DNA from: Escherichia coli
Lineage (GTDB): Bacteria; Pseudomonadota; Gammaproteobacteria; Enterobacterales; Enterobacteriaceae
Assembly (NCBI RefSeq): GCF_024700885.2
Contig: NZ_CP117016.1
Direction: 5' to 3' (one strand)
DNA: 64,000 nucleotides
Both the position numbers and the translations under genes were made by a program. Shown here piece after piece: positions 59,651-60,020 of this stretch. The notes beneath the pieces are model-generated. The model was not told the DNA's origin. It did not search any database and saw only the letters and a program-made list of their open reading frames with translations. Numbering within the stretch: position 1 is the stretch's first letter; every line of letters starts with the position of its first letter.

Positions 59651-59678
59651 TTGCATGAAAACGCGAGCGGAGTATAGT
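59651..59678 (+). promoter_or_regulatory. promoter of the tRNA-fMet triplet (TTGCAT-16-TATAGT, GC-rich discriminator)
   Basis: -35 TTGCAT at 59651-59656, -10 TATAGT at 59673-59678, then GCGCATCCACGG before the first tRNA; A-tract immediately upstream. Confidence 0.65.
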
Positions 59679-59691
59679 GCGCATCCACGGA

Positions 59692-59768
59692 CGCGGGGTG
59701 GAGCAGCCTGGTAGCTCGTCGGGCTCATAACCCGAAGGTCGTCGGTTCAAATCCGGCCCCCGCAACCA
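59692..59768 (+). tRNA. metZ: initiator tRNA-fMet (CAU anticodon), copy 1
   Basis: CGCGGGGTGGAGCAGCCTGGTAGCTCGTCGGGCTCATAACCCGAAGGTCGTCGGTTCAAATCCGGCCCCCGCAACCA; three G-C pairs in the anticodon stem and encoded CCA. Confidence 0.97.
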
Positions 59769-59801
59769 ATTAAAATTTGATGAAGTAAAGCAGTACGGTG
59801 A

Positions 59802-59878
59802 CGCGGGGTGGAGCAGCCTGGTAGCTCGTCGGGCTCATAACCCGAAGGTCGTCGGTTCAAATCCGGCCCCCGCAACCA
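59802..59878 (+). tRNA. metW: initiator tRNA-fMet, copy 2
   Basis: Identical 77-nt sequence, 33-nt spacer after copy 1. Confidence 0.97.
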
Positions 59879-59910
59879 ATCAAATTTGATGAAATAAAGC
59901 AGTACGGTGA

Positions 59911-59987
59911 CGCGGGGTGGAGCAGCCTGGTAGCTCGTCGGGCTCATAACCCGAAGGTCGTCGGTTCAAATCCGGCCCCCGCAACCA
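59911..59987 (+). tRNA. metV: initiator tRNA-fMet, copy 3
   Basis: Identical 77-nt sequence, 32-nt spacer after copy 2. Confidence 0.97.
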
Positions 59988-59994
59988 ATTATTG

Positions 59995-60020
59995 AACACC
60001 CTAACGGGTGTTTTTTTGTT
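59995..60020 (+). terminator. intrinsic terminator of the tRNA-fMet operon
   Basis: Stem AACACCC/GGGTGTT with TAAC loop followed by T-run TTTTTTTGTTT. Confidence 0.8.

Follow-up and report, generated by a model that had tools for sequence, protein, structure and literature searches.

The three tandem tRNA genes described here are, with very little doubt, the metZ-metW-metV operon of Escherichia coli, the main source of the initiator tRNA (tRNA-fMet1) in this species. They lie within the window, by which we mean the whole stretch of 64,000 nucleotides that was analysed (contig NZ_CP117016.1). Judged by its sequence, the array is the operon itself rather than a lookalike, as all of the defining features that can be tested at that level were found. 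The operon is already known and is ordinary for E. coli: metZ, metW and metV have been described as a single operon of identical tRNA1-fMet genes at 63.5 min, which supplies the majority of cellular initiator tRNA (PMC3017606). Functional work has already addressed dosage, fidelity and the phenotypes of deletion (PMC3017606; PMC11480407); deletion of metZWV impairs growth under specific conditions (PMC11480407), and the dose of initiator tRNA from the operon affects both initiation fidelity and growth (PMC3017606, PMC11480407).

According to ARAGORN, the 64 kb window holds three tRNA genes only, all of them tRNA-Met(cat) on the plus strand: metZ at 59692-59768, metW at 59802-59878 and metV at 59911-59987. 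Each scores 61.4 bits against the Rfam tRNA model RF00005, well above the gathering score of 29, and each is identical to its K-12 counterpart (b2814 in the case of metZ). The three 77-nt sequences proved mutually identical in a script comparison, and TRF described the array as a repeat with a period of 109 nt, 2.8 copies and 97% matches. A preliminary description of this DNA, made from the letters alone, had reported three identical 77-nt tRNA-fMet genes with spacers of 32-33 nt. Both statements hold, the first through the ARAGORN and Rfam calls, the identity to K-12 and the initiator marks set out below, and the second through measured spacer lengths of 33 and 32 nt. Open reading frames that overlap the array are mechanical, and were set aside; the tRNA reading accounts fully for the sequence.

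The names given by ARAGORN and PGAP go no further than ‘tRNA-Met’, a label derived from the CAT anticodon that separates neither initiator from elongator tRNA-Met nor either of them from tRNA-Ile2, in which C34 is converted to lysidine. The three CAU genes could on that basis be elongator or tRNA-Ile2 genes, yet the marks of an initiator are present throughout. C1 stands opposite A72, a combination that the Rfam alignment marks as non-standard; the anticodon stem TCGGG/CCCGA, with the loop CTCATAA, provides the three G:C pairs 29-31:39-41, whose role in initiator tRNA has been described (PMC3017606); the D stem GAGC/GCTC gives A11:U24 in standard numbering; and the CAU anticodon is accompanied by A73 followed by the encoded CCA. 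In addition, the sequence is identical to that of K-12 metZ, metW and metV, which are annotated as initiators, and the literature places the tRNA1-fMet genes at the metZWV locus (PMC3017606). The chance that these are elongator or tRNA-Ile2 genes is vanishingly small, and the initiator marks together with the K-12 identity effectively refute it. All three copies also carry G46 (within AAGGTCG), which assigns them to the fMet1 isoacceptor rather than to the form with A46. As initiators, the products would be expected to undergo formylation by Fmt and to be used in the ribosomal P site, as their identity to K-12 tRNA1-fMet implies; in this scheme C1xA72, the three G:C pairs, A11:U24, CAU and A73 would direct the tRNA to formylation, IF2 and the P site, and not to elongation.

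The chromosomal setting is that of the K-12 operon. In the window the gene order is tcdA(-), mltA(-), the three tRNA genes (+), amiC(-), argA(+) and recD(-), and the mltA(-)/tRNA/amiC(-)/argA synteny, including its strand arrangement, is common to other E. coli chromosomes. Of 5426 complete E. coli genomes, 5425 matched a 1001-nt query taken around the array, many of them with 100% identity, and mltA, three tRNA-Met genes and amiC lay beneath each of the matches listed. The earlier judgement that the arrangement is ordinary for E. coli is thus amply borne out. The K-12 record NC_000913.3 names the genes metZ (b2814), metW (b2815) and metV (b2816) with the note ‘tRNA-initiator Met(CAU)’, and the units in the window deserve the same labels, metZ, metW and metV (initiator), instead of plain tRNA-Met.

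Upstream of metZ lies the motif TTGCAT-16-TATAGT, which is the real promoter of the operon despite matching the consensus at only eight of 12 hexamer positions, as shown by an orthologue footprint and by published mutations. The -35 hexamer TTGCAT (59651-59656) fits TTGACA at 3/6 positions and the -10 hexamer TATAGT (59673-59678) fits TATAAT at 5/6, with a 16-nt spacer between them (59657-59672, ending in GAG) rather than one of 17. The discriminator GCGCATCC follows and leads into a very short 5′ leader that ends with G(-2)A(-1) (together 59679-59691), and the -35 hexamer is preceded by an A8 tract (59641-59648) and GG (to 59650), which by inference from the sequence resembles a proximal UP element. 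UP elements are contacted by the alpha-CTD of RNA polymerase; the consensus of their proximal subsite is AAAAAARNR, which the A8 tract would fit. The 32-nt pattern TTGCAT-16-TATAGT-GCGC (59651-59682) occurs once in the window, against 0.00 occurrences expected from shuffles.

The footprint comes from a set of tandem arrays collected by a pattern scan of species-representative genomes for two initiator tRNAs in tandem. The scan yielded 99 loci, belonging to Enterobacterales and also to Ferrimonas and Marinobacter. Parsing with ARAGORN resolved these into 100 arrays, of which 44 contain two copies, 53 contain three and three contain four; all copies were identical in 76 of the 100. The motif TTGC[A/G]N-(16 or 17)-TATA[G/T]T was present within 60 nt upstream of 77 of these arrays, in many genera. 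Because the hexamers formed part of the selecting expression, their conservation is partly circular, whereas the spacer length, discriminator, leader, GAG and A-tract lay outside the selection. In each of the 71 distinct orthologous promoters the spacer measured 16 nt, even though the search pattern also accepted 17. Its central bases differ freely between genera, while GAG, the hexamers, GCGC[A/T]TCCACGGA and the A-run with GG are each conserved at 90% or more among the 71 promoters. Across 68 orthologous promoters, GCGC[A/T]TCCACGGA is nearly invariant.

Genetic evidence points to the same element. Two suppressor strains with single changes in the metZWV promoter drastically lose both tRNA1-fMet and reporter activity; these promoter-down mutations are D4, a G-to-A change just before the Pribnow box, and D27, a T-to-C change inside it (PMC3017606). 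The base directly before TATAGT in the window is G, consistent with the position of D4. A consensus promoter scan of 59300-60300 called no promoter, and the scanner misses the -35 hexamer because TTGCAT fits TTGACA at only 3/6; we do not read this result to mean that no promoter exists, given that both the cross-genus footprint and the published mutations place one here.

The weak consensus match, the silence of the scanner and the 23 of 100 arrays in other genera that are without the motif within 60 nt upstream might be taken to mean that transcription starts further upstream, or that a second promoter exists. Set against this are the strong phylogenetic footprint, with its invariant 16-nt spacer and discriminator, and the fall in tRNA1-fMet levels and reporter activity caused by single-base changes at or beside the -10 hexamer; moreover, the upstream gene mltA lies on the opposite strand and therefore offers no partner for read-through. 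We regard a main promoter elsewhere as extremely unlikely, and take TTGCAT-16-TATAGT as the operon's promoter. The preliminary description was right in its promoter motif, which is present as given at 59651-59678 and is followed by GCGC, and in naming a single promoter, as conservation in the Enterobacterales and the published mutations in and beside the -10 hexamer confirm; its term ‘near-consensus’ does not stand, given a match of 8/12 that the scanner misses. ‘Strong’ finds indirect support in the literature, where most of a cell's initiator tRNA is attributed to the operon.

The arrays without the motif form a subject of their own. Some tandem arrays of Enterobacter, Citrobacter and Atlantibacter have no TTGCAT-16-TATAGT within 60 nt upstream, and share a different conserved upstream sequence, ...GAGGTGAACGAGGAAAG[C/T]CAACGCA...GAAATGC.... 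Others carry another promoter-like motif, CTTGCATTT...GCGTAGTATTTGCCACG, in another downstream context. This deviant motif and context suggest that a tandem duplication may have arisen at a second initiator locus.

The architecture of the metZWV promoter supports its reading as a stringently controlled stable-RNA promoter. Promoters of the rrn P1 type are marked by a 16-nt spacer, a GCGC discriminator and an A-tract upstream, and all three are seen here. Nagase et al. (1988), cited in PMC3017606, mapped the start of metZWV transcription and reported that ppGpp down-regulates the operon. The discriminator, the spacer and the reported ppGpp response are together consistent with such control, and the GC-rich, stringent-type discriminator of the preliminary description is vindicated by the GCGC after the -10 hexamer and by the ppGpp response relayed in PMC3017606. 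In the window, transcription probably starts at about 59685-59687, which would give a leader of 5-7 nt. We propose that one sigma-70 promoter (A-tract, TTGCAT, 16 nt, TATAGT and GCGC) drives a single precursor, and that the short spacer and GC-rich discriminator make up an rRNA/tRNA-type architecture that would be shut down by ppGpp.

The predicted precursor comprises the leader of approximately 5-7 nt, three 77-nt tRNAs, spacers of 33 and 32 nt, and an end at the hairpin and T-run at 59994-60020. From general tRNA biology, RNase P would cut at the 5′ end of each tRNA, and endo- and exonucleases would trim the spacers back to the encoded CCA. In the window, G(-2)A(-1) stands immediately before each copy, within CACGGA at 59686-59691 for metZ and CGGTGA at 59796-59801 and 59905-59910 for metW and metV. 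In the tandem arrays of other species, GA precedes 255 of 259 initiator copies, mostly as CGGA. Meinnel and Blanquet are said to have found, in 1995, that a 5′-flanking guanosine specifies correct RNase P cleavage of pre-tRNA-fMet, in which 1:72 is unpaired. The G(-2)A(-1) in the window is probably such a determinant of the cleavage site for a tRNA with unpaired 1:72. A fold of the whole precursor (59685-60022) gave z = -1.46 with pairing between different copies, and is uninformative.

The operon ends at an intrinsic terminator (59994-60020, plus strand), with an 8-bp stem, a 4-nt loop and a T7 run, which is recognized by a terminator scan, by folding and by comparison with orthologues. The hairpin GAACACCC-TAAC-GGGTGTTT occupies 59994-60013, followed by the T-run to approximately 60020, and folds at -11.1 kcal/mol (z = -4.0 versus shuffles); a CACC...GGTG hairpin with a T-run is found downstream of 74 of 97 orthologous arrays. 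The clean terminator claimed earlier is therefore confirmed by its structure, its z-score and its retention among the orthologues, and the interval given at the outset, 59651-60020, runs exactly from the -35 hexamer through the terminator end.

A second, convergent hairpin, AAAAAGGCGCUGAAUGGCGCUUUUUUU, lies on the minus strand at 60035-60060 (-14.9 kcal/mol, z = -3.9), immediately past the stop codon of amiC, where it stands back to back with the terminator of metZWV. A simple terminator scan missed it, and it is likely to be the terminator of amiC. Two Rfam matches in the same region fall below their gathering scores: a rimP leader at 59962-60061 on the plus strand (21.4 bits against 47), and AaHKsRNA82 at 59985-60062 on the minus strand (28.8 bits against 51.4). 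We rejected both as sub-threshold and take them as likeness among terminators and tRNA 3′ ends. The rimP-leader match probably reflects the shared combination of a tRNA 3′ end and a terminator, as the rimP leader follows metY in E. coli.

Repeats of this kind raise the question of copy number, and the preliminary description had flagged the array as a recombination-prone repeat that deserved checks of assembly and copy number. Near-identical direct repeats of 110 nt would be expected to recombine unequally, so that strains come to differ in copy number, and the array could also collapse during assembly. A census of 60 genomes, sampled systematically from the ranked matches to the 1001-nt query, found three copies at the site in 53, two in three, one in two, four in one and none in one. 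The laboratory strain MC1061 (one copy) and SCPM-O-B-7615 (four copies) were each verified individually.

A second census used an 83-nt query that spans one tRNA-spacer-tRNA junction, in 5426 complete E. coli genomes. The full junction was present in 5194 of these, so approximately 4.3% contain at most one copy, or a gap. In total there were 10287 junction matches, averaging 1.98 across the genomes that have at least one and reaching six in a single genome. Among 59 sampled genomes with full matches, 56 had two junctions, two had one and one had three. Taken together, roughly 88-90% of the 5,426 complete genomes carry three copies. The frequencies are approximate, as they derive from the junction query and from sampled genomes. 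The 80%-coverage statistic is unusable for counting copies: overlapping pieces are joined, and a two-copy genome still reaches 100%.

The genome with no copy is an ST648 record, NZ_CP008697.1, labelled ‘complete genome’, in which a single N replaces the metZWV array (...gcgcatccacggNcacttatgatg..., at 3385-3395 of the retrieved stretch L107). The N is bounded by the leader CCACGG on one side and by the downstream DNA on the other, and ARAGORN calls no tRNA at this spot. This zero-copy state is an array lost during assembly and not a deletion, and a share of the other records that deviate in copy number may likewise be assembly errors. The earlier caution about recombination, copy number and assembly was well placed: variants with one, two and four copies exist, and one array has collapsed to an N.

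It follows that the three copies of the window could themselves be an assembly artefact, the true array being shorter or longer. The near-identical 110-nt direct repeats, the complete genomes with one, two, three or four copies, and the N exactly at the array position of a ‘complete’ CP008697.1 all lend this some plausibility. Three copies are nevertheless by far the commonest state (53/60 sampled genomes, with two junctions in 56/59), many independent three-copy chromosomes match the window across 1001 nt at 100% identity, and the two spacers differ from one another, which helps assemblers to separate the copies. We consider an artefact very unlikely, and a genuine three-copy array the preferred reading. 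The copy number is still worth checking against reads, because approximately one in ten complete genomes has a number other than three, and the array was lost from at least one assembly.

A bolder proposal is that the variation in array length (one to four copies confirmed, possibly up to approximately seven) reflects genuine tuning by selection, and not neutral slippage or errors of assembly. We hold this to be unlikely. If it were true, each unit gained or lost would change the dose of initiator tRNA as well as the number of spacer sites for RybB and MicF (copies minus one), and array length would tie the capacity for translation initiation, and its fidelity, to the thresholds of envelope-stress small RNAs.

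Those spacer sites rest on published work, in which the K-12 metZWV spacers (ITS) co-purify with RybB and MicF (PMC4583644). In the window, the metZ-metW spacer (59769-59801, plus strand) is the 33-nt ATTAAAATTTGATGAAGTAAAGCAGTACGGTGA and the metW-metV spacer (59879-59910, plus strand) is the 32-nt ATCAAATTTGATGAAATAAAGCAGTACGGTGA; both contain AAAGCAGU, the 8-nt complement of the RybB 5′-end nucleotides ACUGCUUU. With the RybB and MicF sequences located in K-12 by Rfam, RNAduplex energies of both spacers with both small RNAs gave z-scores of -0.4 to -0.8 against 500 shuffles, no better than shuffled sequence, and AAGCAGT was kept in only 38 of 159 spacers of other Enterobacterales. The duplex and conservation results neither support nor contradict the published interaction of the spacers with RybB and MicF.

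The position just past metV marks an island hot spot, which this strain has left unoccupied. No single match reaches 80% coverage of the 1001-nt query in 1964 of 5425 genomes (approximately 36%), and in nearly all sampled cases the similarity ends at query positions 689-697, corresponding to 59988-59996 of the window. Genomes that lose similarity after metV include UTI89, ST131 and NRG 857C. In UTI89, a type VI secretion (T6SS) cluster (tssB, tssC, tssK, tssL, hcp, tssH and others; 20690-40700 of the retrieved stretch L002) begins approximately 640 nt after metV, and metV is a known site of genomic islands (several papers). On the 3′ side of metV in the window there is no island, and the terminator is followed directly by amiC, as at the empty K-12-like site. 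A second downstream type, with genes for a PTS system and of the KpsF/GutQ family, was seen in ST648 and E69.

Analysis of the remainder of the window yielded several further observations. Three RNA families scored above their Rfam gathering thresholds: CsrB at 36625-36984 on the minus strand (382.9 bits), GcvB at 55164-55369 on the plus strand (198.4 bits), and the sok antitoxin at 486-643 on the minus strand (111.7 bits), the equivalent position of which is annotated with a Hok/Gef family gene in a matching reference record. A CRISPR-like array at 16604-16877 (plus strand) has five 30-nt repeats with a consensus of approximately CGGTTTATCCCCGCTCGCGCGGGGAACTC and a 61-nt spacing; it was missed by TRF and detected by a repeat search, and a collinear reference record annotates a CRISPR repeat region at the equivalent position, between queE and ygcE. 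The window is collinear with E. coli 2012C-4221 (98-99% alignment) apart from two short breaks, namely approximately 170 nt unaligned at 30300-30472, which by position is the gudD-barA intergenic region, and a 50-nt indel at approximately 44291, between fucO and xni.

The operon can be set beside several known systems. With 3′ETS-leuZ and other tRNA-spacer sponges of small RNAs it shares the co-purification of its K-12 spacers with small RNAs (PMC4583644), and it differs from them in duplex energies at the level of shuffled sequence and in the limited retention of AAGCAGT noted above; no report of a regulatory effect of these spacers was found. With rrnB P1-type promoters, the metZWV promoter shares the 16-nt spacer, the GC-rich discriminator starting with GCGC, the A-rich upstream tract and the reported sensitivity to ppGpp, and differs in having TTGCAT and TATAGT as its hexamers.

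A further comparison is with metY of E. coli, which encodes tRNA-fMet2 in K-12. It too is an initiator tRNA and differs by a single base, being A46 in K-12 metY and G46 in the copies of the window. Unlike the array, metY is a single copy at a separate locus upstream of rimP-nusA-infB, where it is co-transcribed with protein genes from a different promoter. The difference at position 46 between fMet1 and metY is also stated in a bioRxiv preprint (10.64898/2026.04.16.719103), and regulation of metY by cAMP-CAP and ArgR has been reported, as cited in PMC3017606.

Lastly, the operon was compared directly with its K-12 namesake by aligning 59600-60065 of the window with MG1655 (NC_000913.3). The differences are one SNP at window position 59624, a second spacer of 32 nt in the window and 33 nt in K-12 (a 1-nt deletion, plus one substitution), and, beyond the metZWV terminator, an A-run in the adjoining amiC terminator that is 1 nt longer in the window. 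The promoter, the three tRNAs, the first spacer and the terminator are 100% identical, and both arrays are flanked by mltA and amiC.
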